Shown here piece after piece: positions 1-37,975 of a stretch of DNA of 64,000 bases. The stretch is taken from positions 4,429-68,428 of the forward strand of contig JBBIJR010000001.1 in NCBI GenBank assembly GCA_037445875.1. Reading direction: 5' to 3'. The DNA is from Bacteroidota bacterium. Lineage in GTDB: Bacteria > CLD3 > SB21. A program made the position numbers and the translations under genes. Numbering within the stretch: the first letter of the stretch is position 1; each line of letters starts with the position of its first letter. The notes under the pieces were generated by a model. The model worked only from the letters and a program-made list of their open reading frames with translations, was not told the origin of the DNA and ran no database searches.

Positions 1-1017
1 CTGATCAGGTTCCAGAAGCCATGCATTTTCACCGTGCCGGAGAATTTCGGCCGTGTCTTCCAACCGCGGCGCCAGTACGACCGCACCGGCAGCGAGGTAA
101 TCGAACGTCTTGATCGGAAGTACGGTCGTGCCGCCTTCTTCCAGAGGTTTCCGCGTCGGGGGTATCAACAAGGCATCGGCGGCGCACAGGTAGGGACAGA
201 TTTCCGTCGGAGCCATCCACGGCACCCACCGGCAATTCGAGGCCCCGACGCGGACGGCTTGACGCTCCAGCCGTACCCGGTCCTGCAGAGCCCGCACACC
301 CACGATGCAGAATTCATATTCCGGCAGGGCGGCCGCCAAATCAAGGATCGACTCCACGCCTTTCTGCGGACCGGTGTTCCCCGCATAGACGATCACCTTC
401 CGGTCGGCAGGCAGGTTCAACCGTCTGCGGTACTCCGCGGGAGATGCGTCGTCCGTCCGTGCCGGGTGGTCCATCCCGTTGTGTACGGTGACCGTCCGCT
501 CGGGATCCGCTCCCAGTGCCAGCCAGTACCGTCGTGCCATCTCCGAATGCACGACCAAACCCACAAATGCACGATGCCGCGCCTGCAAGGCCACAACCCT
601 TCGATGTTCGCGTTCACCGTGCCGGCAGCGATATGTTTCATACAGGACACGCAGCCCGCAGCGCAGCGCCATCCGAAGGTGGCGGGCGTTTCGGACGCAT
701 ATCAGGCCGCAATTCAGGCGGGCGATGCGCCGGATCGTGAGATGGCTGAACGCCGCCCGATGCATCCGCAGGGCCATCGGCAGCGGTGAGACGGAGGAGA
801 CCATCGAGAGCGCATCCGACAGGCCGTAGTACCTCCGGATGCGCTCTATACGCTGTTCACCCGTCAGCCGCAAGTCCTTCCACGGCGCAGGAACAACCAG
901 CCTTACGCCCGTCGTTCGCCGCGCCATCGCATCGGCCGTTTTGGCGATCTGCTTTGCGGCCACGATACGGGAGGGGAATTCGAGATCCGAGAAATATACG
1001 ATATTTATAGCCTCCAT
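1..1017 (-). CDS. Glycosyltransferase family 4 (GT1-fold); partial, C-terminus runs off the window start
   Basis: Hand translation of the minus strand from ATG at 1017-1015 is open for 339 codons to position 1. It is absent from the ORF track only because it is edge-truncated. The C-terminal part reads ...VIVYAGNTGPQKGVESILDLAAALPEYEFCIVG...EEGGTTVLPIKTFDYLAAGAVVLAP...ENAWLLEPDQ, typical of the GT4 donor-binding region. Plus-strand ORFs 34..789 and 479..829 overlap it and are judged spurious. Confidence 0.6.
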   Translation of the reverse strand, partial: MEAINIVYFSDLEFPSRIVAAKQIAKTADAMARRTTGVRLVVPAPWKDLRLTGEQRIERIRRYYGLSDALSMVSSVSPLPMALRMHRAAFSHLTIRRIARLNCGLICVRNARHLRMALRCGLRVLYETYRCRHGEREHRRVVALQARHRAFVGLVVHSEMARRYWLALGADPERTVTVHNGMDHPARTDDASPAEYRRRLNLPADRKVIVYAGNTGPQKGVESILDLAAALPEYEFCIVGVRALQDRVRLERQAVRVGASNCRWVPWMAPTEICPYLCAADALLIPPTRKPLEEGGTTVLPIKTFDYLAAGAVVLAPRLEDTAEILRHGENAWLLEPDQ

Positions 1018-1026
1018 AGTCGTACC

Positions 1027-2331
1027 TTATGCGGCCACTTCCGCCGCTGCATCGACGGTACGTCGTACGGTGCGTTGCCGGTCGAAACCCACTCCCTCCC
1101 GTGTGCGATTGAATTCGTACACGTATCGCAAACCGTAATACATGAAGTTCGACGGTACCCAGCACACGACGGCATAGTATCCCCACAGCGGGTCGCCGGC
1201 CAGCAGAAATAACAGGAACGTCCACATCGAGATGTTCCGATTGGACTGTACCAGACGGAACCATACGTCGATCTTCCGATAGTCCTGAATCGTCTCACCG
1301 TGCCGGCGCGTGAACAGCCACCGCACAAGACGGTCCAGAAAATACGTCGGCACGACCCAGTACACGGCAAGCCACGCGAGCGCGTAAAAATCGCCGCCGG
1401 AGAAATAGAACGCCATTGCGATGTAGTAGCCGTTGGGATAGATCACATCCGAGACGTGGTCCAACTTGTCTCCGAGAGCGCTTGTCCGAAGGGTTAGTCG
1501 CGCCAGTTTTCCGTCCACCCCGTCGGTCACGCCTTTGGTAAGTGCCAGCGCCAGGGCCGTGAAAAAATTTCCGCTGAAAAAGAACGGCACGGCGCTGAAC
1601 GCCAGCACGATATTGAACAACGTGACGTGATTGGGTTGGATTCGCGTCCGGCAGATCAGGCGCGTAAGGGCGAACTCGAGTGGCGGATGGATGAACTTGG
1701 CCACGAGATCGTTGGTCCCCTTGTGCACGGCGCCTTTAAGCAGCCGGTGGACTGCCTCCGCATCGTCGTCGTTGCTCACCGTCTTCCAATAGACCGGTTG
1801 ATACGACCGCAGCCGCCGGTAGTACGGCTCCATGTCCTCGACGGAGAATCGCGTTCCCCGCGCTTCCACCTGCCGAACGAGACCCGTGAGCGTTGTCGGT
1901 ACCTGTCGTTCGATCGCGCCGAGTGCCGCCGGAGTCAGCAGGGCCAACACCGGATGATCTCCCGCTCGGCTGCACGCGACGGTAGCCGTCTTCAGACCGC
2001 TGAACGCGTGCGTGAGGCGCTCATCGTAAAGTGCATCGCCTTGGAGGATCAGAGCATCCACTCCACGTTCACGCATGTGAGAGACCAGATGCCCGACCGC
2101 TCCCAATCGATCGGTCCACGGATGCACGTGCACGCCCGGGTAGCGTTTCCAGAAATCGCGACGGATCAGACGGTCCAGCCGCCGTCCGGAGCCGACGACC
2201 AGATGAATCTCGGTGAGACCTTCTTCGGCAACCTGCCGCATGACACGTTCGGCCAGCGTCATGCCCCAGACGATGCGCCAGGATTCGGGAGCGGTGGCGT
2301 CAATCCAGACGAACGGCTTCGACGGTGTCAT
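1027..2331 (-). CDS. CDP-alcohol phosphatidyltransferase fused to an N-terminal degenerate nucleotidyltransferase-like domain (IPCT/DIPPS-like architecture)
   Basis: The C-terminal half has the CDP-OH phosphatidyltransferase signature DGVDGKLARLTLRTSALGDKLDHVSD (D-G-x2-A-R-x8-G-x3-D-x3-D) and multiple TM helices. The N-terminal ~220 aa resemble a sugar-phosphate nucleotidyltransferase fold (GMTLAERVMRQVAEEGLTEIHLVVG) but lack the G-x-G-x-R loop. Start chosen at MTPSKP, immediately after the stop of the upstream gene; the ORF track start at 2409 would overlap that gene by ~80 nt. Confidence 0.7.
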   Translation of the reverse strand: MTPSKPFVWIDATAPESWRIVWGMTLAERVMRQVAEEGLTEIHLVVGSGRRLDRLIRRDFWKRYPGVHVHPWTDRLGAVGHLVSHMRERGVDALILQGDALYDERLTHAFSGLKTATVACSRAGDHPVLALLTPAALGAIERQVPTTLTGLVRQVEARGTRFSVEDMEPYYRRLRSYQPVYWKTVSNDDDAEAVHRLLKGAVHKGTNDLVAKFIHPPLEFALTRLICRTRIQPNHVTLFNIVLAFSAVPFFFSGNFFTALALALTKGVTDGVDGKLARLTLRTSALGDKLDHVSDVIYPNGYYIAMAFYFSGGDFYALAWLAVYWVVPTYFLDRLVRWLFTRRHGETIQDYRKIDVWFRLVQSNRNISMWTFLLFLLAGDPLWGYYAVVCWVPSNFMYYGLRYVYEFNRTREGVGFDRQRTVRRTVDAAAEVAA

Positions 2332-3071
2332 ACGGCCACCGCCGCCGGCTGCTTGCGCCATTTCCACAGCGCAACCTGCAGATCCTCCTGCGTGTCCACG
2401 TCCTGCCACGGAAGCCCGTCAATATCCGCATAGAACATGACGTCCTGCCGGATCAGTTCGCGCACACCGTCGGAAAGCGCAAAAGCCCCGTGCGATTGGG
2501 CACGCTGCAGTGCGCCGAGCAGATCGTCTGTTCGAAAAAGAAAGAGCCCGCAATCGATAGCATCGTATTGTTTGAGTTCTTTGCCTATCTCGGCGATGCG
2601 GTTTCCGGTTCCCGTCCGCACCTTGGTGGCATCGTCCAGGTCGGCAATGTTCCAGATACACCGATCCACGGCGAGGACATTGCCGCCGGGGCCGGGAGCG
2701 TTGATGAGAGAGGGAATCTGAGGAACAAACCAGTGGTCGGCCATGGACAGGAGGAAGTGCTCGGACCGGACGTGCCGCAGGGCAGCGAGGACGGAAGTCC
2801 CGTTTCCCTTCTCCCAGGCGGTATTGTGCACCGGATGTACATCGGCGCGGAAAGACATGCCGCGGATCGCAAGGCGGAGTGTTCCGGCTGCGTAACCGGT
2901 CACGAGATGCACCCTCGTGACGCCCGCCTCAGCCAGGCTTTCCACAATATGGCCGATCAGCGGTCTGTCGGCCAGCGGGATCAGACATTTGTGACTCGCC
3001 GAAACGGTATGAGCTATGCGCGAGCCGCGTCCTGCCGCTATGACTACGGCTTCCTGGGTCCGATGGTTCAT
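2328..3071 (-). CDS. Sugar/alcohol-phosphate nucleotidyltransferase (cytidylyltransferase-like, NTP_transferase family)
   Basis: AVVIAAGRGSRI glycine-rich NTP-binding loop and nucleotidyltransferase-fold body (LVTGYAAGTL...GNG...DCGLFLF). Start chosen at MNHRTQEAVVIAAG; alternative start at 3125. Confidence 0.7.
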   Translation of the reverse strand: MNHRTQEAVVIAAGRGSRIAHTVSASHKCLIPLADRPLIGHIVESLAEAGVTRVHLVTGYAAGTLRLAIRGMSFRADVHPVHNTAWEKGNGTSVLAALRHVRSEHFLLSMADHWFVPQIPSLINAPGPGGNVLAVDRCIWNIADLDDATKVRTGTGNRIAEIGKELKQYDAIDCGLFLFRTDDLLGALQRAQSHGAFALSDGVRELIRQDVMFYADIDGLPWQDVDTQEDLQVALWKWRKQPAAVAV

Positions 3072-3219
3072 GCACTTTCCTCCTGCTGAATGCTGGAGTA
3101 AAGTTAAGAACCGCACATTAAGCACGTATTAAGGCCACATTAGAGAACTCTAATGCGGAAACCGTTGCGCCCGGGAACTTTTAGCCGTACTTTAGGCCAA
3201 CGCGACGGGATGACTCGGT

Positions 3220-3894
3220 ATGCGACTGCTGCTGATCGAAGATGACCGTAAGGTGGCCTCCTTCATCGTCAAGGGCCTCACGGAGTCGGGATACGTTGTG
3301 GACCCGGTCCACGACGGGGTCAAAGGCCTCGAGGCCGCGGAAGCCGAGGTGTACGACCTGGTGATCATCGACTGGATGTTGCCGGGTATGAACGGCCTCG
3401 ACGTTTGCCGACGCATTCGGGCATTCGCCCCGCACCTTCCGATCCTGTTCCTGACGGCCCGCGAGTCCGTACCGGATCGCGTGTCGGGCCTCGAAGCGGG
3501 AGCCGACGATTATCTGTGCAAGCCGTTTGCGTTTCTAGAACTGCTCGCCCGGATACGCGCCCTGCTTCGGCGCGGTTCAAGAATGGCCGAGGAACTGCGG
3601 ACCGGCGATCTGCTTATGAACGTCCATGAACGGAAGGTCACGCGGGGCGGACGAATCGTCGATCTCTCCAACAAGGAATTTGCGGTCCTGGAATATCTGC
3701 TGAGGAACAAGAACCGGCTGGTCACGCGTGCGACACTGACCGAACACGTGTGGAACGTGGATTTTGACCGGGGGACCAATCTGATCGACGTATATATCAA
3801 CTACCTGCGGAAAAAACTCGACGACCGCAAAGACAGTCCGATGATCCGCACGGTTCGCGGTGGCGGATACATGCTGGTCGAGGAGAACGCGTGA
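3220..3894 (+). CDS. Two-component response regulator, OmpR/winged-helix family
   Basis: MRLLLIEDDRKVASFIVKGL...DLVIIDWMLPGMNGLDVC receiver domain with a C-terminal winged-helix trans_reg_C domain (TRATLTEHVWNVDFD...IRTVRGGGY). Divergent from the upstream headgroup operon; 4-nt overlap with the downstream kinase. Confidence 0.85.
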   Translation: MRLLLIEDDRKVASFIVKGLTESGYVVDPVHDGVKGLEAAEAEVYDLVIIDWMLPGMNGLDVCRRIRAFAPHLPILFLTARESVPDRVSGLEAGADDYLCKPFAFLELLARIRALLRRGSRMAEELRTGDLLMNVHERKVTRGGRIVDLSNKEFAVLEYLLRNKNRLVTRATLTEHVWNVDFDRGTNLIDVYINYLRKKLDDRKDSPMIRTVRGGGYMLVEENA

Positions 3895-5300
3895 GCCTGC
3901 GGTACCGAACGCGCCTGATGCTCGCCTTCGTACTGCTGGGCCTCTTCATTGCGGTGTCGAGCTTTCTTGTGTATTACACGGTTTTCCGCGCCCAGCTCAC
4001 TCGTGCGCTGAGCAAGGAACTGCTCATCGAGGCGGAGGATTTTGCGGAGGACGTTGTCGTACGGGGAGACACGCTGGCGCTGCGGGCGGGCATCGAGTGG
4101 AATCACATCACGCATACGCACGTTTCCGACTACGCGCGGTTCGTGGAGATCGTGGACGGGCGATTTCGTACGATGCGCAAGACGGCCAACCTCGGATCGC
4201 GATCGCTGACCGATTTCTACGCTTTCGGACCGACGGCCGTGCCGGTAACGGTTAAATTCAGGCTGGATACGATGCGTGTGCGCTGCGCGGTCCTGCCTAT
4301 TGTGTCGGGCCAGCGCGCAGCGGGTTACGTTCTCGCCGCCGGCAGCACGCTACCCACTCGGCAGTACCTGCAGTTGTTCGAAAGCATCATGATCGGGTCG
4401 TTCATCCTCACGGGATGCATGGGGCTCCTGCTCTCATACCTACTGGCCGCCCGTATTACCCGCCCGCTCAAGCAGATCCGGGCCGCCGCGAAGAAGATGG
4501 ACCTTCAGACCCTCGGCCGCATCGGACCGCTCAAGGGCGGTGTCGAGGTCGAGCGCCTCGCCGACACCCTCAACGGCCTCTTCGAGCGCATCGAACGGTC
4601 CTTTCAGCAGATCAACGACTTTTCCTCCAACGTCTCTCACGAACTCCGCACGCCGCTGACCATCCTTAGAGGCAACATCGAAGTCGCGCTGGCCCGCGAA
4701 CGAACGCCGGAGGAGTACGTCCGCGTGTTGTCCGACCTGCTCGACGAAACCATCCACATCATTCGTCTGGTGGACAACATGCTGCTGCTTGCGCGCGCCG
4801 ACTCTGCGCCGCTTCGCATCGAACGGTTGCCCGTTGAGCTGGGCGGCCTCTGCCGGGAATTTCAGCGGGACTGGGAAACGCTCTGCGCCATGCGCGGACA
4901 AACCTTCGAATACCTCGTTCACGCCCCGGTCCGCGTTTCCGTCGACAGAAACCTGATCTACCAGTTGCTGCTCAACCTGATCGCCAACGCGTCGAAGTAT
5001 TCACCTGAGGGAAAGCACGTCACCTTGAGCGTCGATCGCGTCGCGTACAACGGAAGTCCGGTGGGCGTCCTTACGGTGACCGACCGGGGGATCGGCATCC
5101 CTCCAGCGGACCAACCTCGCGTGTTCGAGCGGTTCTATCGCGTGAACAAGGACCGTTCGCGCGAAACGGGGGGGACGGGCCTCGGTCTTTCCATCTGCAA
5201 GATGATCGTCGAACTGCACGAAGGCACGATCGACCTGACGAGTCGACCGGGAGATGGAACGACCGTGACCGTTCGCATTCCGGCGTCCAACAAATCTTGA
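3891..5300 (+). CDS. Sensor histidine kinase (HAMP-HisKA-HATPase_c), CusS/BaeS-like
   Basis: N-terminal TM helix, periplasmic domain, second TM, H-box SHELRTPLT, and G-boxes DRGIGIP / GGTGLGLSI. Confidence 0.85.
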   Translation: MSLRYRTRLMLAFVLLGLFIAVSSFLVYYTVFRAQLTRALSKELLIEAEDFAEDVVVRGDTLALRAGIEWNHITHTHVSDYARFVEIVDGRFRTMRKTANLGSRSLTDFYAFGPTAVPVTVKFRLDTMRVRCAVLPIVSGQRAAGYVLAAGSTLPTRQYLQLFESIMIGSFILTGCMGLLLSYLLAARITRPLKQIRAAAKKMDLQTLGRIGPLKGGVEVERLADTLNGLFERIERSFQQINDFSSNVSHELRTPLTILRGNIEVALARERTPEEYVRVLSDLLDETIHIIRLVDNMLLLARADSAPLRIERLPVELGGLCREFQRDWETLCAMRGQTFEYLVHAPVRVSVDRNLIYQLLLNLIANASKYSPEGKHVTLSVDRVAYNGSPVGVLTVTDRGIGIPPADQPRVFERFYRVNKDRSRETGGTGLGLSICKMIVELHEGTIDLTSRPGDGTTVTVRIPASNKS

Positions 5301-5340
5301 CGCGTTGGGCCGAGTGTGGGTGGCCGACCGTGCGCTCGAA

Positions 5341-6360
5341 TCAGGGCACAGCGTGCTCCAGCCGATAGAGTTTCACGGTTTTGTCGTAGCTCGCGCTCGC
5401 CAGCCATCGGCCGTCCGGGCTGAACGCCACCGAATAAACGTCGTTCCGGTGGTCGGAGAGGGTCTGTATGAGGGCGCCGTCCTGTACGTGCCACAGACGG
5501 ACCGTTTCGCCATTGTCACCGAATTCCCCGAAGAAGTTTTCGACGATTTCGCCAAGCCACGATTTGTTTCTGCCGCCGCTCGCCAGCCATTGTCCGTCCG
5601 GGCTGAAGGCGACGGAATAGATACACTCGGAACCTCCCGACAACGTGGTTTCTTCTGAACCGTCGTTGACGCACCAGATTTTCACGGTCTTGTCGTCGCT
5701 TCCGCTCGCAATCCTTTTTCCATCCGGGCTGAACGCGATCGATACGATCGCTTCGGAATGTCCCTTCAATGTCCTTTCGAGTGAACCGTCGTTTACGCGC
5801 CAGAGTTTGATCGTCCGGTCGTAGCTGCCGCTGGCCAGTCGTCGTCCGTCGGGACTGAATCGGACCGACCAGACGGTGAGGCCGTGTCCGACAAGGGTGT
5901 GCATGACGGTACCGTTCCTTGCGCTCCAGACCTTCACCGTTTTGTCGTTGCTTCCGCTCGCTATCCACCGGCCGTCGGGACTGAACGTGACCGACCACAC
6001 GGTTTCCAGATGTCCCGTGAGCGACCGAACGACCTGGCCGTCGCTCACGCGCCATATAAGGACGGACCCGTCGTAACTGCCGCCGGCCGTATACCGGCCG
6101 TCCGGACTCACCGCCACCGAGGTCAGCCCATCCGTGTAGCGCAGAGTTCTCTGAAGGGTCCCGTCACGCACGCGCCATATCCTGACGCAGCTATCCACGC
6201 CGGCGCTGGCACACCATTCACCGTCCGGACTGAAGGCGACCGCCCACAAGGGACCGGTGTGACCGTACAGCGTCGCGTGCTGACGTGCAATCAACGGCGA
6301 CCCCTCTTGCGCAACGACCAGACCGCAAAAACTGAAAAGCAACATCAGAGGACGAACCAT
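5341..6360 (-). CDS. Secreted WD40-repeat beta-propeller protein
   Basis: Signal peptide MVRPLMLLFSFCGLVVAQ followed by at least seven WD40 repeats (GH...SVAFSPDG...ASGS.D.T.K.W). Start chosen at the signal-peptide Met; ORF track start is 6444. Confidence 0.75.
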   Translation of the reverse strand: MVRPLMLLFSFCGLVVAQEGSPLIARQHATLYGHTGPLWAVAFSPDGEWCASAGVDSCVRIWRVRDGTLQRTLRYTDGLTSVAVSPDGRYTAGGSYDGSVLIWRVSDGQVVRSLTGHLETVWSVTFSPDGRWIASGSNDKTVKVWSARNGTVMHTLVGHGLTVWSVRFSPDGRRLASGSYDRTIKLWRVNDGSLERTLKGHSEAIVSIAFSPDGKRIASGSDDKTVKIWCVNDGSEETTLSGGSECIYSVAFSPDGQWLASGGRNKSWLGEIVENFFGEFGDNGETVRLWHVQDGALIQTLSDHRNDVYSVAFSPDGRWLASASYDKTVKLYRLEHAVP

Positions 6361-6838
6361 TCGGACGTGGCCTCCCATTATTACTAAAGGCAGCGGGGAG
6401 GGTTTATTATTCGGTTCCAAGTGCCTGTTCCATTTCGAGACCATTAATATCTTGAGTCCGTAGAGCGTTGCTTACGATATCGGGGCGAGGAAGTTTCATC
6501 AGATGGACAGCGGCGATTTTTTCCGGTCCGGGGTGAAAAAAAACTTGCTCCGTTGGGCACCCGCGGTTATGTTACTATTGAGGCGCGAAATAGTTTACGC
6601 ATCGCTCCAGCATTTGCAAGAAATGACTCCTCGAGATGATCGGGAAATGATCAGCGACTTCGTTTTTTTGGTGGCCTTGGAAAAACCGCCGAAGAAGACC
6701 AGCCTTCGCGCCTTAGATATCAGCGGAGAACGTGGAACACTCTGGAATCCAACGACTGGACTTGAAACCTACGGAGCTGTCCACCAGTAAGCGAACTCTG
6801 GTTCCGGCGTTTTTTCCACAGCCTTGATTTTTCTTTTC

Positions 6839-6872
6839 GTTCTTTTCTTTGCATCAAGGCAAAGAAAAGAAC
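6839..6872. promoter_or_regulatory. Perfect 14-bp inverted repeat (gttcttttctttgc-N6-gcaaagaaaagaac) in a divergent promoter region
   Basis: Read directly: 6839-6852 is the exact reverse complement of 6859-6872. It lies in an unusually AT-rich ~500 bp intergenic region between the divergently oriented WD40 gene and the S9-hydrolase gene. Confidence 0.4.
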
Positions 6873-6953
6873 ATCTCGGGTTGTGAATCCATCGTCGATG
6901 GATAGGGCTGCTGCCAACAATTTCGTGCTCCCTCTAGTAATCCAGGGGAGTGT

Positions 6954-7961
6954 TTGACGAAAGGAAACGATTTGAAGAAGGTCCTGCTCGGACTCACGGC
7001 GGCCGGTGTGCTGAGCCTCGCCATCGGACTGGCTACGGACCGCTCCAAACCGGCCGAAGAGGCGACATCGGCCGGTGCCGTACCATTGTTCGACTCGATC
7101 TCCCTGCCCGCCCTCGCCAGCCTGGAGGGAAACGGCGGAGACCTCAAGCCCGGCCGGGTACTCGACCGCAACGAGGCCTATACCCGATATTACATCACCT
7201 ACCGCGGCGGGGAACTCACGATCAGCGGCATTATGAACGTGCCTACGGGTAAAGGTCCGTTTCCGGTTCTCATTCTCAACCACGGCTTCATTCCGCCCCG
7301 CATTTACACCAACGGCCGCGGCCTGAAGCGGGAGCAGGATTATTTGGCGCGAAAGAAGTTCGTCGTGATCCATCCCGACTATCGAAACCACGCCGACTCC
7401 GACAAAGACACGCTGAACGATCTGAAGTTTCGACTGGGATATACCGAGGACGTGCTCCATCTCGTGGATGCGGTCCGCGGTTCCGATCTGCCGTATTTCG
7501 ACAAGGAGCGCATCGGGATGATGGGCCATTCGATGGGCGGAGGCATTGCCATGAACATCATGGTCACGCGGCCGGATCTGGTCAAGGCGATCGTACTGTA
7601 TGCACCGGTGAGCGCCGATGCGGCCGACAATTTTTATCGCTGGACCGCCCGCAGCGAGGCCGGACGAAAGATCCTGGATCGGTATGGCAGCCCCGCGTCC
7701 GCCCCGGATTTTTGGAGGAACCTCTCGGCGATGTCGTTCCTCGACCGTACGACCGCACCGGTACTGATCCACCACGGTATGCGGGATGAGAGTTGTCCTC
7801 CGGAATGGTCGGTGCGCCTGACGGACAGCCTGCAGGCATACGGAAAGACCGTCACCCTGCACACGTACGACGGAGAAAAACACGAGCTAATCGACCGGTG
7901 GCCGCTGATGATGCAGCGGACGGCGGATTTCTTCAATCAGTACCTCCGCCCGAGGCCGTGA
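6954..7961 (+). CDS. Alpha/beta hydrolase, prolyl-oligopeptidase (S9) / dienelactone-hydrolase-like, secreted
   Basis: N-terminal signal/lipoprotein-like segment, GHSMGGG nucleophile elbow, and downstream D and H catalytic residues. TTG start preceded by aggggag. Confidence 0.7.
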   Translation: MTKGNDLKKVLLGLTAAGVLSLAIGLATDRSKPAEEATSAGAVPLFDSISLPALASLEGNGGDLKPGRVLDRNEAYTRYYITYRGGELTISGIMNVPTGKGPFPVLILNHGFIPPRIYTNGRGLKREQDYLARKKFVVIHPDYRNHADSDKDTLNDLKFRLGYTEDVLHLVDAVRGSDLPYFDKERIGMMGHSMGGGIAMNIMVTRPDLVKAIVLYAPVSADAADNFYRWTARSEAGRKILDRYGSPASAPDFWRNLSAMSFLDRTTAPVLIHHGMRDESCPPEWSVRLTDSLQAYGKTVTLHTYDGEKHELIDRWPLMMQRTADFFNQYLRPRP

Positions 7962-8373: not shown

Positions 8374-11300
8374 TCACGCGTAGGTCAACCGCTCCGACGG
8401 CAACAGGACTTCAAAGACCGAGCCTTCGCCGGGCGTCGACCGCACCTCGATCTTCCCGCCGTGGCGTTGAACGATCCCGTACGCCTCGGACAGTCCCAGA
8501 CCGTACCCTCTCCCTACCTCGCGTGTCGTGAAAAACGGATCGAAAATCTTGTCGACATGCTCGGGGGGAATACCCACGCCGTTGTCCCGGATCCGAATCG
8601 TAACCCAGCGCCGCTGGCCAACCGTCTGCTCGCCGGTTGAAATCCATATCGTTCCACCGTCCGCGCGTTTGTCCTGGATCGCCTGAACGGCGTTGGTCAG
8701 TAGGTTCAGGATGGCCAGGTGAAATTGTCCGGTGAAGAGTCGAACCGGCGGAAGTTGTGCGAACTCGGTCCGTATGGCAATCGAAGGGAACTGGCCGAGG
8801 AACAGGTCGACGATCGTCTGAATCGACTGGGTCAGGTCCACGGTCCGCTCTTCCGGAGCGTCGAGATTGGAGAAGCGGAATAAATTACTCAGGATCTTCT
8901 TGATCCGCTGACCGCCGCCCATGGAAGCCTGCAGGGAGCGCTCCAACTCCTCGCGGTCCATGCTCCCCGTTTCACGCAACAAACCCTGGGCGTGTTCCAG
9001 ATTGCCCAGCATCACGCCGAGCGGGTTGTTGAGTTCGTGGGCCATGCCCGCCACGAGACGGCCCAGCGACGCCATCTTCTCGGCACGCATGATCTGCAGT
9101 TGCTGCTGCTTGATCTGCTCGTTCTTCTCGCGGATTTCCCGTGTCCGGCTTTCCACAAGTCGTTCGAGTTCGGCTTGCCGCTTTTCGATCGCGCGCATGC
9201 GTCCCCGGTAGATGAAGATCGCCCCCGCCGCTAACAGGGCCAGTCCCGCAAGTTTGAACCACGTCGCCTTCCAGAACGGCGGATGCACGATCAGGGGAAC
9301 TCGCAGCACCCGGTCGCTCCAGATGCCGTCCGGGTTCGCCGCACGTACTTCGAAAACGTACTCGCCGCCGGGCAGGTTCGTGTAGGAAACAAATCTCCGC
9401 GTCGTGGCCAGTTGCCAGCGGTCGTCCAGTCCGACCAGACGGGAGGAAAATGTGTTTCGCTCGGGTTGCGTGAAATCCAGCGCAGTGAATTCCAGCTCGA
9501 TCCGGTTGTCCGGCTCGAACAAGTCGATCGTCGGGACCGTCTGTCCGTTCAGCGGCGCGAAGACCGCACTGTCCCGGATTTTCCAGGAAGTCAGCACGAC
9601 GGGGGGTTGATACGTGCCGGTCCTCAGGCTGTCGGGATTGAAACGGTTGTACCCGTTGATACCGCCGAACCACAGGTCGCCGCGTGAGTCCGCGAGGAAG
9701 GCGCCGGTGAATTCGTTGCTTTGCAGACCATCCTGCGCCGTGTACGTCCGGACGGATTCGTTGACCGGATCGAAGCGAACGAGACCGCGGTGCGTGGTCA
9801 TCCAGAGATAACCCGGCCGGTCTTCCACGATGGCGTACACGACGTTGCTCGGCCATCCGTCCTGTTCCGTGTACCTCTTCCACGTATTCCCGGCGAGATC
9901 CAGCCGATTGAGTCCTCCGCCATACGTGCCGATCCATACGGTTCCCCTGCGGTCGCGATGCACCGCATAGACGCGGTTATCGGACAGTCCGGACGGATTG
10001 GAATCGTGATGCGTATAGTGCACGGTTTGCTGGGTCCGCGGGTCGAAAGCGTACAGCCCCTGGCCTTCCGTGCCCACCCAGATGCGCCCGTCGCGGTCTT
10101 CGTACAGTACGTACACAAGCGCCGACAGCGACGGGCCGTCCGGGTCCCGCTCCAGCGGGACACGTTCCACCTTTCCCGATGCCGCCGGACGGCGGAACAC
10201 GCCCGAACCCCACGTTCCGATCCAGAGGTGACCGCCGCGGTCTTCCAGCAACGCGGACGCCGAAGGATACCTTCCGCCGGGCGTGGTCGTCACAGCGATC
10301 TCGACTGCGGCAAACGGAGTTCCTCGAACCGACACCGCCAGCGGTCTATACAGCGTGCCTGCCCACAGACGGCCGGAACGGTCTTTGCACAGCGACCACA
10401 CGTACGAACTCATGAAGCCCGCCGTCGGCACTCGGGTTACAGCCCCGGAACGATCGTGGCGGAAGAGACCGCTGCCCCACGTACCGACGAACACGCTTCC
10501 ACCATCGCCTTCTGCGAACGACCACACCGTGCGGTTGCTTTCTTTTTCGTGGGGGGCAGGCAGCGAATAATGGCGGAACCGGTTCCGGCCCAAACCGCCC
10601 GGGTGGAACCTGCACACACCGCCCAGGCTCGTTCCTATCCACAGGTTGCCCGCCCGGTCCTGGTAGATGGCCCGCACGTCGTTCGCCGGGAGCGAGTTCG
10701 GATCGGACGCGTTGAACGTGTAGCGCTCGAAAAGCATGGTGCCGGCATCGTTCCCGCGTGCCCGATTCAACCCACCACCCGTGCCGACCCACATCGTACC
10801 CGCCCTGTCGCGGAAAATCCGCAGCACTCGGTCGTCCGAGAGGCTGCCCGGTACGTCGGACCGATACGCGTGCCGGACGAACCGGCCGGGCGATGTCATG
10901 ACATTCAGTCCGCCTCCCAATGTACCGATCCAGAGCCTGCCGTCGGCATCCTGCCCCAGATCGATCACGGAATTCTCACTGAGCGAATGCGGATCGGCCG
11001 CGTCACGTACGTACGTCGTGGCGTGTCCGTTGCGGCGATCCAGGCGCACGAGTCCGCGGGAGGTCCCGGCCCACACTACGTCGTTGCCGATCCACACGGC
11101 GTTCACCTGCGGAGGCGGTTCCCGTCCCAACGGCATGCGACGGATTCTTCCGCCGGCCAGCTCCACGACGTCGAGTCCCCCGTTGGTGCCCACCCACAGC
11201 AGACTGTCGCCGTCAAGGCTCAGGCAGAGGATCCGATTGTGGCTGAGCGAGGCTGGATCCGCCGGGTGGTGCCGGTAGACCGTGACATGCGGCGGATCCT

Positions 11301-11646
11301 GCGCGGCGTCGATGCGGTGCAGTCCTCCGGCATCGGTTCCTACCCACAGTACGCGCCCGCGCTGCCAGACGAAACACATGATGAAATTGTCCGTGACCAG
11401 CGGCGACGGTCCGGAATTGCGAAACACACGGAACTCATAGCCGTCGAACCGGTTGAGTCCGTCGGCGGTGGCGAGCCACAGGAACCCGTCTTCGTCCTCA
11501 CCCAGGTCGAACACCTGGCTCTGCGACAGGCCCTCGTCGAGCGAGTATCGGTCGAACTTCAGCGGCATCTCCTGCGCCGCGGCGAAAGAGGCCGGGAGAA
11601 CCAAGCCGATGAGCCATCGGACAACGCCGGAGAACGGTCGCACCAT
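8374..11646 (-). CDS. Hybrid-type sensor histidine kinase with N-terminal two-component regulator propeller (Reg_prop) repeats and a Y_Y_Y domain
   Basis: Signal peptide, then more than 12 repeats of D..G.LW.GT..GL..., then a Y_Y_Y-like segment, a TM helix, a coiled coil, the HisKA H-box MAHELNNPL, and HATPase_c boxes DNGVGIP / GYGLGLS. Confidence 0.85.
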
Positions 11647-11649
11647 GCA

Positions 11650-12519
11650 TCAAGTGTTGGTTTGGGTCAGGAACTGATAGATCGCCGAAAAATCCCTGTC
11701 GGCAAAGCCGCGGCCGCGCGCGAGTCCGTAGACCTGCTTCGCCGCGCCGAGCAACAGCAGCGGCACGACGTTCTCGTACGCCGCCTCGTCGGCCAGCTGC
11801 AGGTCCTTGTGCATCCACTGCAGGGGAAATTCGGGTTCGTAGTCTCCCCGTTCGATCTTGCCGCGTTTGAGCCCGAGGAACGGCGCCGTCACGGGGAGGT
11901 TGAGCAGCGTATCGAGCAATGTTTTCTGTGAAAGGCCGAGCGCCTGGCCCAGCACGAGCCCTTCGGCGAAGGCCAGCATCGACGAGGCGAGCATCGAATT
12001 GACCACGAGTTTCATGGACGCTCCGCAACCGTGGCCGCCGACGTGCACAATCGCACGGCCCATTGCTTCGAACAGCGGCCGGCACGTTTCGACGTCTTCC
12101 GCTTCGCCTCCCACGAGAAAGACCAACTGTCCGTTCTCCGCAGGAATCTTCGAGCCGGCCACGGGGGCATCGAGGAACCTAATACCTTTGCCGCGGCAAA
12201 GGCCGGCCATCCGGTGCGACAGCGCCGGGCTCACGGTGGAGCAGTCCACCCAGATCGCGTCCGGCCGCAGGGCGTTCACGAAGCCGCTTTCCCCCAGCGC
12301 CTTCACTTCGACCACCTCCGGCGTAGAGAGCATGGTGAACAGCACGTCGCATTCTGCCGCGGCATCGGCCACGCTGGGCGCCCAGTCCGCGCCTGCATCG
12401 AGCAAGGCCCGGGCCTTGTCGAGCGTGCGATTGTGAACGATCAGATCAAATCCCTTTTTCTGTAGATTGGCCGCCATGCGGCTTCCCATGATGCCAAGAC
12501 CGATGAATCCGATTTTCAT
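11650..12519 (-). CDS. NAD(P)-dependent oxidoreductase, 3-hydroxyisobutyrate dehydrogenase (HIBADH) family
   Basis: MKIGFIGLGIMGSRMAANL Rossmann motif and the HIBADH-family catalytic region GASMKLVVN; 4 nt upstream of the sensor kinase. Confidence 0.8.
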   Translation of the reverse strand: MKIGFIGLGIMGSRMAANLQKKGFDLIVHNRTLDKARALLDAGADWAPSVADAAAECDVLFTMLSTPEVVEVKALGESGFVNALRPDAIWVDCSTVSPALSHRMAGLCRGKGIRFLDAPVAGSKIPAENGQLVFLVGGEAEDVETCRPLFEAMGRAIVHVGGHGCGASMKLVVNSMLASSMLAFAEGLVLGQALGLSQKTLLDTLLNLPVTAPFLGLKRGKIERGDYEPEFPLQWMHKDLQLADEAAYENVVPLLLLGAAKQVYGLARGRGFADRDFSAIYQFLTQTNT

Positions 12520-12883
12520 GTGTACCTCGTGTGTTGGAATGTCCGGCCGTGGGCCAGCGCTGCAAGGTGATCGTCAACCGGTGATCCGGAGTGTACCTCA
12601 CAATATCAAAATCGCCCGCGTCTTTCAAGGACGAAAACGGGTTTCTATTGTTGGTCATGGGCCATGCACGCTCAACCCCTCTACTGGCTCAGTATTCGGA
12701 ATTCGTCGGGCCACCTGCTCGATGCGGCTCTCACTCTGCGTTTATCGACTGACCGTAAGTTGAAGCTTGTTTTACCGATCCAGGAAATGTACACTCTGTA
12801 TGTACGCTGTGTGTGTGCCGTCGGGCAGGTTTCATAGTCGAAACGCTTCTCTTTTCGTTAACCTATTCCCTGAAAGGAGCGAT

Positions 12884-13879: not shown

Positions 13880-14298
13880 TCAGGCCGCCGGTCCGTCCGA
13901 AGGTCGCGACCCATCCACAAACGGAGGAGCGTTACCCGTCTCCCCTCTTTGCCGTATCATCGGCAAGGAGGGGTACGGGGCACTTGACGCCTAAGTGATC
14001 GTATAGCCTCCGCACGAAGCAAGGGCTCGTCCCTTATGGACTTCAGAGCCTCTTGCCCGACCTGCAACAAATAACCACCGGCACCCCTCTTGACTGAACA
14101 GTCCCGTGGGAACGAGATGCTGTGGACAAACACCATGGAAAGTGGATGACCGTCTCGTAGGACGGAGGGACGAAATAGGTTTTGGAACGGTTCGCCGGTC
14201 ACCGCAGCAGGAAAACACCAACCGTCGAACCGGCCAAACGTCGGATGGCAGTTGATCTCCGTTCAGGTGGGAAGGGTATTGCCGTAGTGCGGGAACGC

Positions 14299-18268: not shown

Positions 18269-18339
18269 GCACTTACTCCTTCTTGCTGTGAGGATTCTTC
18301 GCAAAGCCAACCCGAGTGTTAGGTCCCAACCCGGCACCC

Positions 18340-18905
18340 AATTCGGGCTGCAAATATATGATATTTAATGCCGCTAAGCAATACCTAAAAACAACCCAAT
18401 AAGCATTTGCGCAGTCTGGAGTTTATTCTATATAAAACAATTATTTGCGATAGATTTCAGTCACTGCGAGACAGCTTGGACTTATGTGCTTTATTGTTAA
18501 TTACTTAGCTGCGGGAGCGCGCGGTTTACGATGCGGTATTTTCGGTGCGATCGCAAAAACCCTACGCAAGCAAGCAATGATTTAACAATAGTATACAACG
18601 TCAATTCCTCTCATGTGGATAAAAAAACTTGACAATCATAGACCCTTTCTTAAATTAACGATTGTGTGGAGTTGAGAGAGGATTCTGTGAATAACTTGTG
18701 GAATGTTAATAAGATGTTTCGTAATTGGTCTCGCCTGTTAATAATCCCGAAACACTGAATGGTGCAGATTTCTTCACGCGATATTCACAAGTTATTGTTT
18801 AGTAATCAATTACGCTTCTCTCGGTTCCTTTCCAGTCTTCCACTACATATCCTCCTGGGTATAGCTGTTCTTTAATTTTCAATCATCACTGAAATGTGAA
18901 TAAGT
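18340..18905. other. oriC: Chromosomal replication origin (oriC) region: AT-rich, with DnaA boxes
   Basis: The only strongly AT-rich stretch in the window, immediately upstream of dnaA. Perfect DnaA box TTATCCACA (as tgtggataa) at 18614-18622. Single-mismatch boxes at 18686-18694 (tgtgaataa), 18781-18789 (atattcaca) and 18895-18903 (tgtgaataa). A-tracts and a T/A-rich segment at 18410-18470 are a possible unwinding element. Confidence 0.6.
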
Positions 18906-19006
18906 GTCTTGAAGAGGGGAGCATGGTCGAATACTCGTTGGCGCAGAATTACTCTGCAAGCTTAGGTCAACACCATGGGGATGGGAGTTCGGAAGGGGTT
19001 CTTCAG

Positions 19007-20398
19007 ATGGCAGAAGACGCTGCAACGCCCAAGATGGTCTGGGCGCAGTGTTGTGACATCATCAAAAGCCAGATCCCCAGTCCTTCGTACCGGACCTGGA
19101 TCAATCCGATCGTACCGCTGAAGATTGAGGATCAGAAACTGGTCGTGGCCATACCCAACCAGTTCTTCATCGAATGGCTGGAGGGACGTTACAGTCATCT
19201 GATCCAGTCGGCGCTGACGCTTGTGGTAGGTAACCACTTCGGCATCAGGTACGTCGTCAAGGAACATGACACCGCTCAGGCCGGTAACGGCCAGGACACC
19301 GGCGAGGCGCTGGCGTCCGTTCCGGTCGTTCCCATCCGCGTACTCGAATCCAGGGACGACCCGTTCGAGTCCAACCTCAACCCGCGGTACACCTTCGACA
19401 ACTATATCGAGGGCAACGGCAACAAGTTTGCCCGCGCCGCGGCGCTCGCGGTGTCGGAAAAACCCGGAAAGACGTCGTTCAATCCGCTGGTCATCTACGG
19501 AGGGGCCGGGCTCGGAAAGACCCACCTCATCCAGGGCATCGGCAACTACGTCAAGGCGAACTACCCGGACAAACGCATTGCGTACGTCACGAGCGAGAGT
19601 TTTACCAACGACTTCGTGACCGCCATCCGCAACGACAAGGTCCAGGAGTTCAGCCGCCTGTACCGCAATTTCGATCTCCTGATGGTGGATGACATTCAGT
19701 TCTTTGCCGACAAAGGCAAAACGCAGGAAGAGTTCTTCCACACCTTCAACACGCTTCACCAGATGGGCAAACAGATCGTACTCACGTCGGACCGCCCGCC
19801 GAAGGAACTCAAACACGTGGAGGAACGCCTCATTTCGCGATTCCAGTGGGGTCTCGTCACCGACATTCAGCCGCCGGATCTCGAGACGCGCATCGCCATC
19901 CTCCAAAAGCGCAGCGAGGAGGACGGCGTCTACCTGCCGCCCGATGTGTGCGAATTCGTGGCCATGAACATCACGTCCAATATCCGCGAACTGGAGGGTT
20001 CGCTGATCAAGTTGCTGGCGTACGCTTCCATCGCCAACACCGAACTGAGCCTCGACCTGGCCAAGTCGGTCCTCAAGGACACGATCGCGGTCAAGAAGAA
20101 GAACCTGTCCATCGAGATGGTGCAGAAGACCGTGGCGGACTACTACGGAATTGCGGAAGATCTGCTCAGGGCCAAGACGCGCAAGAAAGAGGTCGCCGAG
20201 GCGCGCCAGATCTGCATGTTCCTAATCAAGGAAGTGCTGGGATGCTCTCTAAAGACCATCGGTCTTCATTTCGGCGGGCGCGACCACTCGACGGTCATCC
20301 ACGCCTGCCGGCTCGTCGAAGAATGGGCGGCGGAAAATCCCAAAGTGCGTGACGATCTCGAAACGATCAAGCGCAAGATCGAGCTGGCCGGATTTTGA
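19007..20398 (+). CDS. dnaA: Chromosomal replication initiator protein DnaA
   Basis: Domain I (MVWAQCCDIIKSQIPSPSYRTWINPI), AAA+ Walker A GGAGLGKTHL, Walker B LLMVDDIQF, and C-terminal DNA-binding domain (HSTVIHACR). The ORF-track start (GTG 18896) lies inside a DnaA box. ATG 19007 (MAEDAATPKMVWAQC) or ATG 18923 are more plausible starts. Confidence 0.9.
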   Translation: MAEDAATPKMVWAQCCDIIKSQIPSPSYRTWINPIVPLKIEDQKLVVAIPNQFFIEWLEGRYSHLIQSALTLVVGNHFGIRYVVKEHDTAQAGNGQDTGEALASVPVVPIRVLESRDDPFESNLNPRYTFDNYIEGNGNKFARAAALAVSEKPGKTSFNPLVIYGGAGLGKTHLIQGIGNYVKANYPDKRIAYVTSESFTNDFVTAIRNDKVQEFSRLYRNFDLLMVDDIQFFADKGKTQEEFFHTFNTLHQMGKQIVLTSDRPPKELKHVEERLISRFQWGLVTDIQPPDLETRIAILQKRSEEDGVYLPPDVCEFVAMNITSNIRELEGSLIKLLAYASIANTELSLDLAKSVLKDTIAVKKKNLSIEMVQKTVADYYGIAEDLLRAKTRKKEVAEARQICMFLIKEVLGCSLKTIGLHFGGRDHSTVIHACRLVEEWAAENPKVRDDLETIKRKIELAGF

Positions 20399-30508: not shown

Positions 30509-30520
30509 CAAAGGAGGACT

Positions 30521-34079: not shown

Positions 34080-34081
34080 GC

Positions 34082-35167: not shown

Positions 35168-36814
35168 ATGAGAATCATCAAAGCCCCACGAGGCGGTCGG
35201 ATTGTCTGCAAGGGGTGGCAGCAGGAAGCGGCCATGCGGATGCTGATGAACAATCTCGATCCCGAGGTCGCGGAGAACCCCGAAGAACTCGTCGTGTACG
35301 GCGGCAGCGGCAAGGCCGCGCGCAACTGGGATTGCTTCGACGCCATCGTGCGGAGTCTTCAGCAACTGAACGGCGACGAAACTTTGCTTGTTCAGTCCGG
35401 CAAACCCGTCGGTGTGTTCCATACACACCCGGACGCCCCGCGCGTGATCCTGGCCAACTCGAACATCGTACCGCACTGGGCGACGTGGGAGAATTTCCGC
35501 CATTACGAAAAACTCGGGCTTACGATGTACGGCCAGATGACCGCCGGCAGCTGGATTTACATCGGCACGCAGGGCATCCTGCAGGGTACGTACGAAACGT
35601 TTGCCGAATGCGCGCGCCAGCATTTTGGCGGTTCCCTAAAAGGGACGATCACCCTGACGGCCGGTCTCGGCGGCATGGGCGGCGCGCAGCCGCTCGCCGT
35701 CACCCTCAACGGCGGCGTGGCGATCATAGTAGAAGTCGACCCGCACCGGATCCAACGGCGGCTCGACACGGGCTACTGCGATGAAATGGTGGGCGACCTC
35801 GACGAAGCGTGGAGAAAGGCGGAGGAATTCAAACGCAGGAAGGAAGCGCGCTCCATCGGGCTGCTCGGCAATGCGGCGGTTGTATTGCCGGAGATGATCC
35901 GGCGCAGGTACAGGCCGGATATCGTAACCGATCAGACCTCTGCGCATGATGCGCTGAACGGATACGTGCCGGCCGGACTGGAAGTCGGACAACTGGCGGA
36001 ATACCGGCAGAAGAAACCCGACGACTACATACGCCGGGCCATGGAGTCGATGGCCGTGCACGTTCGCGCGATGCTCGATTTTCAACAGCGCGGCTCGGTC
36101 GTCTTCGATTACGGCAATAACATCCGCGCACAGGCGAAGAAGCAGGGGGTGAGCAACGCCTTCGATTTCCCCGGTTTTGTCCCCGCCTTCATCCGGCCGC
36201 TGTTCTGCGAAGGCCAGGGCCCGTTCCGCTGGGTGGCGTTGTCCGGTGATCCGGAGGATATCTATACAACCGACCGTGCGATCATGGAGGCCTTTCCGGA
36301 AAAAGAATCGCTCCGCCGCTGGTTGACGGAGGCGCGGGAGAAAGTGCATTTCCAGGGCCTGCCGAGCCGCATCTGCTGGCTTGGATACGGTGAGCGCGAC
36401 CGCGCCGGCCTGATCTTCAACGAACTGGTGAAATCGGGCAAGGTCAAGGCGCCGATCGTCATCGGACGCGACCACCTCGATTGCGGTTCCGTCGCTTCGC
36501 CCAACCGCGAGACCGAGGCCATGAGGGACGGCAGCGACGCCATCGCCGATTGGCCGATGCTGAATTTTGCCATCAACGCGGTGAACGGTGCGACGTGGGT
36601 GTCGCTGCACCACGGCGGCGGTGTAGGCATCGGATACTCTCTGCACGCCGGAATGGTCATTGTCGCCGACGGGACCGACGCAGCGGCCGTCCGGCTCAAA
36701 CGTGTGCTGACGTCGGATCCCGGCATGGGTATCGTGCGCCACGCGGACGCCGGATACGAAGAAGCCATCGAGGTTGCCCGGACACGGGGCGTTGCGATCC
36801 CGATGATGAAATAG
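35168..36814 (+). CDS. hutU: Urocanate hydratase
   Basis: [51 protein letters not shown] is diagnostic for urocanase; full length ~548 aa. Confidence 0.9.
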
Positions 36815-36822
36815 TACTGCCT

Positions 36823-37785: not shown

Positions 37786-37975
37786 AACACGGTTCGTGAA
37801 GAAGAACGAGTTTTCTCGCCCATAAAGAGGCATGTCTGGAGAGCATGATAGAAGACGTGCGGCACGTCCGAGTGCCTCATGCTTTGCCAACCGTCTCGAG
37901 ATCCACCGAGTGGTCGGGTCCCCACGCATCCGGTTTGTGACCGCCCGCTGTCGACATCGGTCGCTTCAGCAAGAA

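Follow-up and report, generated by a model that had tools for sequence, protein, structure and literature searches.

An IPCT-like nucleotidyltransferase gene coupled to a pseudo-cytidylyltransferase–CDP-alcohol phosphotransferase gene and a GT4 glycosyltransferase gene: a candidate glycolipid pathway in a Bacteroidota bacterium

We analysed a 64,000-nucleotide stretch of DNA from a Bacteroidota bacterium (assembly GCA_037445875.1, contig JBBIJR010000001.1, positions 4,429 to 68,428), referred to below as the window, which begins with three co-directional, tightly coupled genes on the minus strand. In the order of transcription, they encode a stand-alone nucleotidyltransferase that resembles CTP:inositol-1-phosphate cytidylyltransferases (IPCTs; gene 1), a two-domain protein that combines a degenerate nucleotidyltransferase domain with a CDP-alcohol phosphotransferase (gene 2), and a family 4 glycosyltransferase (GT4; gene 3). 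The arrangement recalls the bifunctional IPCT/DIPPS protein, with the difference that the activating domain is split off as gene 1 and a copy that has lost its catalytic motifs is retained in gene 2. This split had been proposed in an original prediction made from the DNA sequence alone, and the comparisons below bear it out.

Three coupled genes at the window start

The longest open reading frame (ORF) of gene 1 spans 2328..3125 on the minus strand and is opened by an upstream GTG. Translation probably starts at the ATG at 3071, located 8 nt after an AGGAGG, which yields a protein of 247 aa (2328..3071) that equals the gene called on the public contig and has the same length in relatives. As originally predicted, the protein features an intact G-x-G-x-R loop followed by a lysine (AAGRGSR...SHK), and it matches the Pfam families NTP_transf_3 (61.9 bits, cut-off 27) and NTP_transferase (24.8 bits, cut-off 21.2). 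Its top NCBIfam match is the IPCT half of the IPCT/DIPPS model NF041135 (E 1e-28, 100.5 bits), with the next family at 61 bits. The only curated IPCT model, NF041135, represents the bifunctional protein of Thermococcales and has a cut-off of 580 bits, whereas gene 1 encodes a stand-alone domain. The three best PDB matches are the IPCTs 2xme (1.7e-18), 4mnd (1.2e-17) and 4jd0 (3.3e-9), the last of which we take to be the Thermotoga IPCT. All three align with gene 1 from end to end and have the motifs AAGxGxR, Lys, EKGNG, M(G/A)DH, DATK, IGK..D.D.G and W.DVDT.ED in common with it. Other solved nucleotidyltransferases score E 4e-7 or worse (LicC, 7e-4), at least 10 orders of magnitude behind 2xme, and align over the N-terminal loop only. 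Judged by these sequence comparisons, gene 1 is an IPCT-like enzyme, probably a CTP:inositol-1-phosphate cytidylyltransferase, and would act on inositol-1-phosphate.

Gene 2 (1027..2331, minus strand) encodes a protein of 434 aa, one residue fewer than the 435 originally given, which is identical to its sole 100% database match. A GTG-started version of 460 aa, extending to position 2409 and adding a GGGGR stretch, was rejected, as the extra part overlaps gene 1 in another frame; the GGGGR stretch is missing from all homologues. The N-terminal domain (approximately residues 1–205; 1717..2331, minus strand) has no Pfam match, nucleotidyltransferase families included, and its first 34 residues, MTPSKPFVWIDATAPESWRIVWGMTLAERVMRQV, contain no G-x-G-x-R. 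An AlphaFold2 model based on 34 homologues (pLDDT 90, pTM 0.86) predicts an alpha/beta N-terminal domain, a juxtamembrane helix and six transmembrane (TM) helices. When the whole model is compared with the PDB in Foldseek, IPCT-DIPPS (4mnd) ranks first, over 445 columns, followed by the Archaeoglobus fulgidus protein AF2299, with TM-scores of 0.75–0.81. The N-terminal domain alone retrieves MurU, RmlA, glucose-1-phosphate cytidylyltransferase and PntC at ~1e-6 to 1e-5, and hhalign matches its residues 13–205 to positions 24–244 of the IPCT-like family (probability 98.2%, E 5e-14). The predicted nucleotidyltransferase-like fold without a glycine-rich loop is therefore supported by both structure and profile comparison.

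The same hhalign comparison reveals what this domain has lost. The Gly-rich loop is gone, the signature lysine is replaced by Glu17, the aspartate of the ADH motif is not conserved among the N-terminal domains of the gene 2 family, and a segment of ~33 residues (the lid) that carries DATK...IGK...D.D.G is deleted. A GLTLxER motif is common to the N-terminal domains of gene 2 and AF2299. The sequence comparisons thus give good support to the view that the N-terminal domain is a degenerate, probably inactive copy of the gene 1 fold that has lost its catalytic motifs. Gene 2 does not contain the competent cytidylyltransferase domain of an active bifunctional IPCT/DIPPS.

The C-terminal domain (1027..1716, minus strand, stop codon included) is a class I CDP-alcohol phosphotransferase. 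CDP-OH_P_transf (PF01066) is the only Pfam match of gene 2 and covers residues 233–351 with 56 bits (cut-off 22). The catalytic signature D1xxD2G1xxAR...G2xxxD3xxxD4 lies at 1447..1524 on the minus strand, translates to DGVDGKLARLTLRTSALGDKLDHVSD and is complete, as the original prediction had stated. Over the 34 homologues, D271, D274, G275, A278 and R279 do not vary, and conservation of G288 and D292 reaches 90% or more. Some family members (including P0010, P0011 and P0019–P0023, at alignment positions 292–296 of the window protein) have Gly, Asn or Thr in place of D4, which is proposed to be the catalytic base (for example LDHVGGAIYD), and carry a further Asp four residues on; the window protein retains D4. 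The helices of the model (210–228, 234–254, 257–280, 286–312, 319–345, 366–378 and 382–407) superpose on 4mnd and 4o6n.

A profile of the gene 2 family finds AF2299 as its best PDB match (7e-19), followed by IPCT-DIPPS (2e-16). Among the NCBIfam models, the highest scores are those of AIP synthase (46.8 bits, cut-off 180), IPCT/DIPPS NF041135 (44 bits, cut-off 580) and PIP synthase (35.2 bits, cut-off 170). PssA (31.7 bits, cut-off 107) and PgsA (23.5 bits, cut-off 109) score below these inositol-related models and under their own cut-offs, and an ordinary PgsA or PssA identity was rejected. Going by these scores, the membrane domain is a separate subfamily whose nearest clades are inositol-related (DIPPS, AF2299 and the AIP and PIP synthases). 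The profile searches thus place gene 2 outside the ordinary PgsA and PssA families and its N-terminal domain within the nucleotidyltransferase fold, the outcome that the original prediction had implied on both counts.

Gene 3 (1..1017, minus strand) is cut by the window start, which leaves its first 339 codons. Pfam identifies it as a GT4 glycosyltransferase of the GT-B type through Glycos_transf_1 (PF00534; 46.3 bits, cut-off 26.4) and Glyco_trans_1_4 (PF13692; 46.1 bits, cut-off 27), and its best PDB match is Alr3699 (E 6.5e-6), with MshA at 0.0035. No specific NCBIfam family applies: the WcaI, MshA and GlcNAc-PG synthase models all score far under cut-off, MshA reaching 19.3 bits on the partial gene 3 and 42.7 bits on a full-length relative against a cut-off of 462.5. 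By family models and solved relatives, gene 3 is thus not recognisable as an orthologue of PimA, PimB' or MshA.

The three genes are closely spaced. Genes 1 and 2 had been described as abutting without an intergenic gap; there is indeed no gap, but the genes overlap by 4 nt, with the ATG of gene 2 placed over the stop codon of gene 1 (ATGA). The ATG of gene 3 at 1017 lies 9 nt past the TAA of gene 2, rather than 10 nt as first proposed.

On the other side of gene 1, a divergent intergenic region (3072..3219) was inspected by sequence. A sigma-70 consensus scan found no site in it, a result at chance level from a consensus that does not cover Bacteroidota-type promoters; the single match in 1..5400 falls at 3509–3537, inside the response-regulator gene. 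A terminator scan likewise remained at chance level. Beyond this region lies the divergent regulatory pair that had been recognised originally, namely an OmpR-family response regulator (3220..3894, plus strand) and a sensor histidine kinase (3891..5300, plus strand) that overlaps it by 4 nt. The pair is closest to the CusR/CusS type, under the family cut-offs (heavy-metal-type regulator model, 240 bits, cut-off 279; CusS-type kinase model, 229 bits, cut-off 292). In one of the two closest relatives of the locus (L001), a 67% identical copy of the response regulator occupies the same position together with a HAMP/HisKA/HATPase_c kinase; the regulator copy is absent from the other (L084).

Relatives and their gene neighbourhoods

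Relatives of gene 2 are numerous and widely distributed. A word-indexed search returned ~40 of them, and a profile search (E <=1e-30) retrieved 530 clusters at 50% identity among 1.84 billion representatives. A scan of species-level genomes identified 371 relatives, of which the best 80 were examined and the best match is 57% identical. The 371 relatives come from Calditrichota, KSB1, Latescibacterota, Gemmatimonadota, Zixibacteria, Verrucomicrobiota, some Alpha- and Gammaproteobacteria, and Thorarchaeota; the hosts of the family are mesophilic soil, sediment and host-associated lineages.

In L001 and L084, the same gene order and ATGA coupling recur with proteins that are 47–57% identical, and the three window genes are therefore real. 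Both loci continue from the nucleotidyltransferase–gene 2 pair to a GT4, a Polysacc_synt (MOP/Wzx) flippase and a second GT4. One of the two goes on with a 458-aa membrane protein that weakly matches PMT_2/GT-C, two methyltransferases, a dehydrogenase and a family 2 glycosyltransferase. In L084, a NAD-dependent epimerase and a UbiA-family prenyltransferase (12066–14046) follow the block with the second GT4, so that this genome may make a polyprenyl-linked sugar donor or an isoprenoid lipid. Neither cluster contains a conventional priming phosphoglycosyltransferase. The operon is therefore not one of three genes, as originally predicted, since the closest relatives continue with the MOP flippase, the second GT4 and glycan genes; the window genes are very probably the head of a cluster of ~7–11 genes that is cut by the window edge.

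Neighbours were tallied by targeted tblastn within 10 kb of the gene 2 homologue at ~84 loci, with a Pfam check of cluster representatives. A nucleotidyltransferase is present at 48 of these loci and a MOP flippase at ~55. Genes associated with lipid export are also frequent (outer-membrane efflux protein (OEP) 36, MlaC 36, DUF3047 34, MMPL 20), and LPG_synthase_TM occurs at 10 loci; a literature search on DUF3047 returned nothing relevant. Orthologues of gene 3 with 35–55% identity adjoin the gene 2 family in six other genomes, and in the seven genomes with the GT4 orthologue, the window's included, the gene 2 homologues are 30–57% identical. In most other lineages, the family stands beside lipid-export genes and without glycosyltransferases. 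Radical SAM and radical SAM/SPASM proteins are neighbours at ~33 loci, including L059, L047, L061 and L066 from uncultured Gammaproteobacteria; their best NCBIfam matches are generic, and the tetraether lipid synthase Tes model reaches 49 bits against a cut-off of 450.

At six loci, inositol-1-phosphate synthase (MIPS) lies beside the pair (Sandaracinobacteroides twice, Kordiimonas, Opitutales and two Verrucomicrobiae), with the order gene 2 homologue, MIPS, nucleotidyltransferase in Sandaracinobacteroides. The MIPS query was an approximate sequence and its matches are leads only; one of them was confirmed as PF01658 with 122 bits. At these six loci, too, the gene 2 homologue is without a Gly-rich loop.

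Many Gemmatimonadota and Latescibacterota loci hold both a bifunctional protein with an intact GAGxR and a pseudo-domain protein, with a flippase between them. Given this co-occurrence, the pseudo-domain form seems to derive from a bifunctional ancestor that was duplicated. A rough neighbour-joining tree, of which we use only the broad split, separates pseudo-domain proteins from bifunctional paralogues. In metagenome-assembled genomes (MAGs) of these and related lineages, the cluster order is a bifunctional GAGxR protein of ~483 aa, a MOP flippase, the pseudo-domain protein and then export genes, namely the outer-membrane efflux protein, DUF3047, MlaC and sometimes MMPL (L026, L028–L030, L033–L046, L050, L053, L055, L063 and others; in L026 at 6065–7522, 8385–9950, 9980–11263 and 11611–14400). 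It looks like a dedicated system for lipid synthesis and outer-membrane export that is apparently undescribed. In two Thorarchaeota MAGs (L062 and L081, ~9890–11248), the nucleotidyltransferase domain is recognisable and carries GQGSR, and the protein is of the true bifunctional IPCT/CDP-alcohol phosphotransferase type.

A candidate CDP-inositol route to a glycolipid

The reading we favour, and which we hold with about as much trust as doubt, is a Kennedy-type synthesis of a phosphoinositol lipid, followed by its glycosylation and outward flipping, with the window genes at the start of a longer envelope-glycolipid cluster. From CTP and an alcohol phosphate, which is most likely L-myo-inositol-1-phosphate, gene 1 would form a CDP-alcohol (CDP-inositol). 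Gene 2 would then move the phospho-alcohol from this soluble donor onto a membrane-held acceptor, most likely a lipid alcohol (diacylglycerol, dialkylglycerol or ceramide), to give a phosphoinositol lipid, whose head group the GT4 would glycosylate at the cytoplasmic face. Extrapolating from the closest relatives, the MOP flippase, the second GT4, a possible GT-C and modifying enzymes would be responsible for flipping the glycolipid and for lengthening it, much as phosphatidylinositol mannosides and lipomannan (PIM/LM) are made in mycobacteria.

Within this scheme, we infer the alcohol, the acceptor and the order of glycosylation from several lines of evidence. The conserved ATGA coupling and the nucleotidyltransferase at more than half of the loci point to a donor that is a soluble CDP-alcohol and not CDP-diacylglycerol. 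IPCT-DIPPS and AF2299, the top structural and profile matches of gene 2, likewise draw on soluble CDP-alcohols as donors (PMC4634129). Since gene 2 is coupled to the IPCT-like gene 1, CDP-inositol is the likeliest donor, and the six loci with MIPS beside the pair reinforce the link to inositol. A membrane phosphoinositol lipid as the product is suggested by the flippase and lipid-export neighbours, by the lack of any other priming enzyme and by the MIPS-linked alphaproteobacterial operons.

The N-terminal domain of gene 2 is probably a scaffold or docking module that would support the membrane domain, as in AF2299. It may also recruit the soluble cytidylyltransferase, so that CDP-inositol would be handed over directly. 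The idea of recruitment draws on known pairs of an active and an inactive nucleotidyltransferase, namely VTC1–KONJAC and GMPPA–GMPPB, both of which are among the fold and sequence matches of genes 1 and 2.

Several observations weigh against this glycolipid route. We found no MIPS gene in the 64-kb window, nor within 10 kb in L001 or L084, so that the case for inositol is built on the resemblance of gene 1 to IPCTs and on remoter members of the family. CDP-alcohol phosphotransferases with six TM helices, the number present in gene 2, generally take soluble acceptors, whereas lipid-acceptor enzymes have extra helices, and CDP-glycerol is the ligand in crystals of AF2299, the best profile match (PMC4634129). 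A conserved basic RLxGSRRN motif of the gene 2 family aligns with PGKRDER in the acceptor region of DIPP synthase and would suit a phosphorylated soluble acceptor. The family-specific NCBIfam models all score far under cut-off, the likeness to the Rhodothermus enzyme BEPIS discussed below is one of description and not of sequence comparison with the characterised protein, and the downstream part of the cluster lies beyond the window edge.

Some of these points bear more directly on the nature of the alcohol. With the same chemistry, gene 1 could make CDP-glycerol, CDP-ribitol, another CDP-polyol or a CDP-amino alcohol, and gene 2 would install the corresponding phospho-alcohol. The CDP-glycerol in the AF2299 crystals (PMC4634129) and the lack of MIPS in the window and the two closest relatives are consistent with such a substrate, as are the score of gene 1 on the IPCT model, at only ~100 bits, and the fold it shares with LicC- and PntC-type cytidylyltransferases. 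However, three solved IPCTs align with gene 1 over its whole length and share their specific motifs with it, LicC being a distant match, and six loci of the two-domain family are physically linked to MIPS. We therefore consider a different alcohol unlikely, although it is the alternative that survives best.

The original prediction had named both a soluble compatible solute and a lipid as possible products. In the solute version, gene 2 would act like DIPP synthase on CDP-inositol and inositol-1-phosphate and the GT4 would glycosylate the soluble product, giving a compound that resembles the mannosyl-di-myo-inositol phosphate of Thermotoga. Its appeal lies in the presence of IPCT/DIPPS among the top NCBIfam and PDB matches of gene 2, in the alignment of the conserved basic GSRRN with GKRDER of DIPP synthase and in the six-TM architecture typical of soluble-acceptor enzymes (PMC4634129). 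Yet gene 2 reaches only 44 bits on the DIPPS equivalog NF041135, far from its cut-off of 580, and neighbours such as the flippase, MlaC, MMPL, OEP and LPG_synthase_TM would make no sense for a cytoplasmic solute. Moreover, di-myo-inositol phosphate is a solute of hyperthermophiles, whereas the gene 2 family is found in mesophilic lineages, and no thermophile signature amenable to a check is evident in the window. A solute product is thus less likely than a lipid and, on its own account, improbable, which leaves the lipid half of the earlier proposal as the favoured one.

Equally hard to credit is a role in decoration. In this version, an enzyme encoded elsewhere would prime a lipid-linked oligosaccharide or polysaccharide repeat, and gene 2 would attach phospho-inositol or another phospho-alcohol to it. 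The clusters of the closest relatives do look like polysaccharide loci of the Wzx-dependent kind, as they contain a MOP flippase, methyltransferases and several glycosyltransferases. However, neither contains a priming phosphoglycosyltransferase, gene 2 comes straight after the gene of the activating enzyme, with which it is translationally coupled, most other lineages have the family with lipid-export genes and without glycosyltransferases, and a glycan acceptor is not known to us for any class I CDP-alcohol phosphotransferase.

If the glycolipid route is extended to the family as a whole, a broader and tentative possibility emerges, to which we give less than even credence. Little-cultured phyla may build surface lipids, or lipoglycans like PIM and lipoarabinomannan, on a phosphoinositol anchor derived from CDP-inositol, with the pseudo-domain tethering the soluble IPCT for channelling and with dedicated MOP flippases and Mla, MMPL and OEP components carrying the product to the outer membrane. 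The phyla concerned would be lineages of the FCB group, Gemmatimonadota, Latescibacterota, KSB1, Calditrichota and some Verrucomicrobiota and Alphaproteobacteria.

Bacterial inositol lipids are considered rare and almost always made from CDP-diacylglycerol, and to our knowledge a CDP-inositol route to a bacterial lipid has been shown biochemically in one organism only. In the literature searched, we found no description of the split into an active and a dead cytidylyltransferase, of the coupling of such a pair to GT4 enzymes and a MOP flippase, or of the breadth and lipid-export context of the gene 2 family. That family comprises ~530 sequence clusters (50% identity) across many phyla and combines an IPCT-like enzyme and an AF2299-like transferase with flippase, glycosyltransferase or lipid-export genes. 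If the favoured glycolipid reading is true, a physiological role would be found for AF2299-type proteins, which are structurally solved but functional orphans, and the range of inositol-anchored glycolipids would reach far past Actinobacteria and Bacteroides. The locus would then also be a clear example of a pseudoenzyme domain that persists next to its active paralogue. With cultured members such as Sandaracinobacteroides hominis, Kordiimonas marina and Thermaurantiacus tibetensis, the family allows a direct test of the idea.

The remainder of the window contains further features of separate interest. The dnaA gene (18896..20398; Bac_DnaA, DnaA_N and Bac_DnaA_C) lies just downstream of the stretch with the lowest GC content in the window (0.51), and DnaA-box-like sites occur at 18614, 18686 and 18895, with a window-wide count of 10 versus 6.6 expected that is not above chance; the region upstream of dnaA (in 18000–20398) is probably the dnaA promoter or an origin. 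Two tandem glucose/sorbosone dehydrogenase paralogues and a multihaem cytochrome-like protein with a type IX secretion system (T9SS) tail are encoded within 29360–32569 and 47570–49549. The second dehydrogenase carries Ig-like domains and a T9SS C-terminal sorting domain; such sorting domains indicate an FCB-group (Bacteroidota-like) organism. A CMAS methyltransferase gene slightly overlaps an FAD-dependent gene with a weak match to the geranylgeranyl-reductase catalytic domain (32964–35053); these lipid-modifying genes lie ~30 kb from genes 1–3 and have no evident link to them. The window also encodes a 1090-aa sensor kinase with a Reg_prop beta-propeller and Y_Y_Y domains (8374–11646, minus strand) and a 762-aa Ser/Thr protein kinase with three PEGA domains (38768–41056, plus strand). 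A 555-aa ORF without a Pfam match (36262–37929, minus strand) overlaps in antisense the urocanase gene at 35168..36814, which has strong Pfam matches; at least its overlapping part is probably spurious, as is typical in GC-rich DNA.

Comparison with known systems

The original prediction regarded the route as one that is not in textbooks. This view needs correction, as the chemistry and the domain architecture both have precedents, in the pathway of Rhodothermus marinus (Jorge et al. 2015, cited in PMC4587543), in a cluster proposed for Bacteroides and Prevotella (PMC9246714) and in the architecture of AF2299 (PMC4634129). By contrast, the parallel drawn with IPCT/DIPPS and with CDP-inositol-dependent lipid routes is upheld, both by the PDB matches of gene 1 and by the grouping of gene 2 with DIPPS, AF2299 and the AIP and PIP synthases.

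AF2299 (PDB 4o6m, 4o6n and 4q7c) is, like gene 2, a CDP-alcohol phosphotransferase with an N-terminal cytidylyltransferase-like domain, and in both proteins the TM core consists of a juxtamembrane helix and six helices. AF2299 has a pocket for a soluble CDP-alcohol donor and is an orphan as regards its physiological role (PMC4634129). Unlike gene 2, it is archaeal and has a shorter N-terminal domain, and the two are only ~13–14% identical in the structural alignment. The bifunctional IPCT/DIPPS of A. fulgidus (4mnd), which belongs to the di-myo-inositol-phosphate pathway, is the best Foldseek match of gene 2; its IPCT half matches gene 1, whereas its DIPPS half and linker match gene 2. The window differs in that the active cytidylyltransferase is separate and the fused copy is devoid of catalytic motifs. 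In addition, the scores are far under the family cut-off, and the gene context points to a flipped membrane product.

The pathway of R. marinus has the same logic of head-group activation. According to PMC4587543, which cites Jorge et al. 2015, MIPS, IPCT and BEPIS lead to an ether phosphoinositol lipid from CDP-inositol and dialkylether glycerol, and MIPS-IPCT-BEPIS operons are described for Rhodothermus and Alphaproteobacteria. Here too, an IPCT-like gene adjoins that of a DIPPS-like CDP-alcohol phosphotransferase, and the alphaproteobacterial relatives of gene 2 that occur with MIPS and a nucleotidyltransferase match the reported distribution of BEPIS homologues. Unlike in R. marinus, the window contains no MIPS, a GT4 is added, and in the relatives a flippase and glycan genes are added as well.

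The inositol-lipid cluster proposed for Bacteroides vulgatus and Prevotella consists of a nucleotidyltransferase, a CDP-alcohol phosphatidyltransferase and a HAD hydrolase and would follow a Kennedy-type route via CDP-inositol (PMC9246714). It resembles the window genes, by description, in pairing a nucleotidyltransferase with a CDP-alcohol phosphatidyltransferase, and LPG_synthase_TM, a frequent neighbour of that cluster, is the one found at 10 loci of the gene 2 family. In contrast to the window genes, which include no HAD gene, the Bacteroides/Prevotella cluster is linked to MIPS and the HAD hydrolase and leads to a putative inositol phosphoceramide.

In mycobacteria, phosphatidylinositol is converted to PIM and LM by the successive action of PgsA1, the GT4 enzymes PimA and PimB', a flipping step and GT-C enzymes such as PimE. 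The gene order of the closest relatives, with a CDP-alcohol phosphotransferase, putatively cytoplasmic GT4s, a flippase and a possible GT-C-like extension enzyme, would follow the same sequence of steps. Donor and acceptor would, however, be reversed with respect to mycobacteria, which use CDP-diacylglycerol and inositol phosphate, and the likeness to PIM/LM synthesis is best understood as one of analogy rather than of membership.

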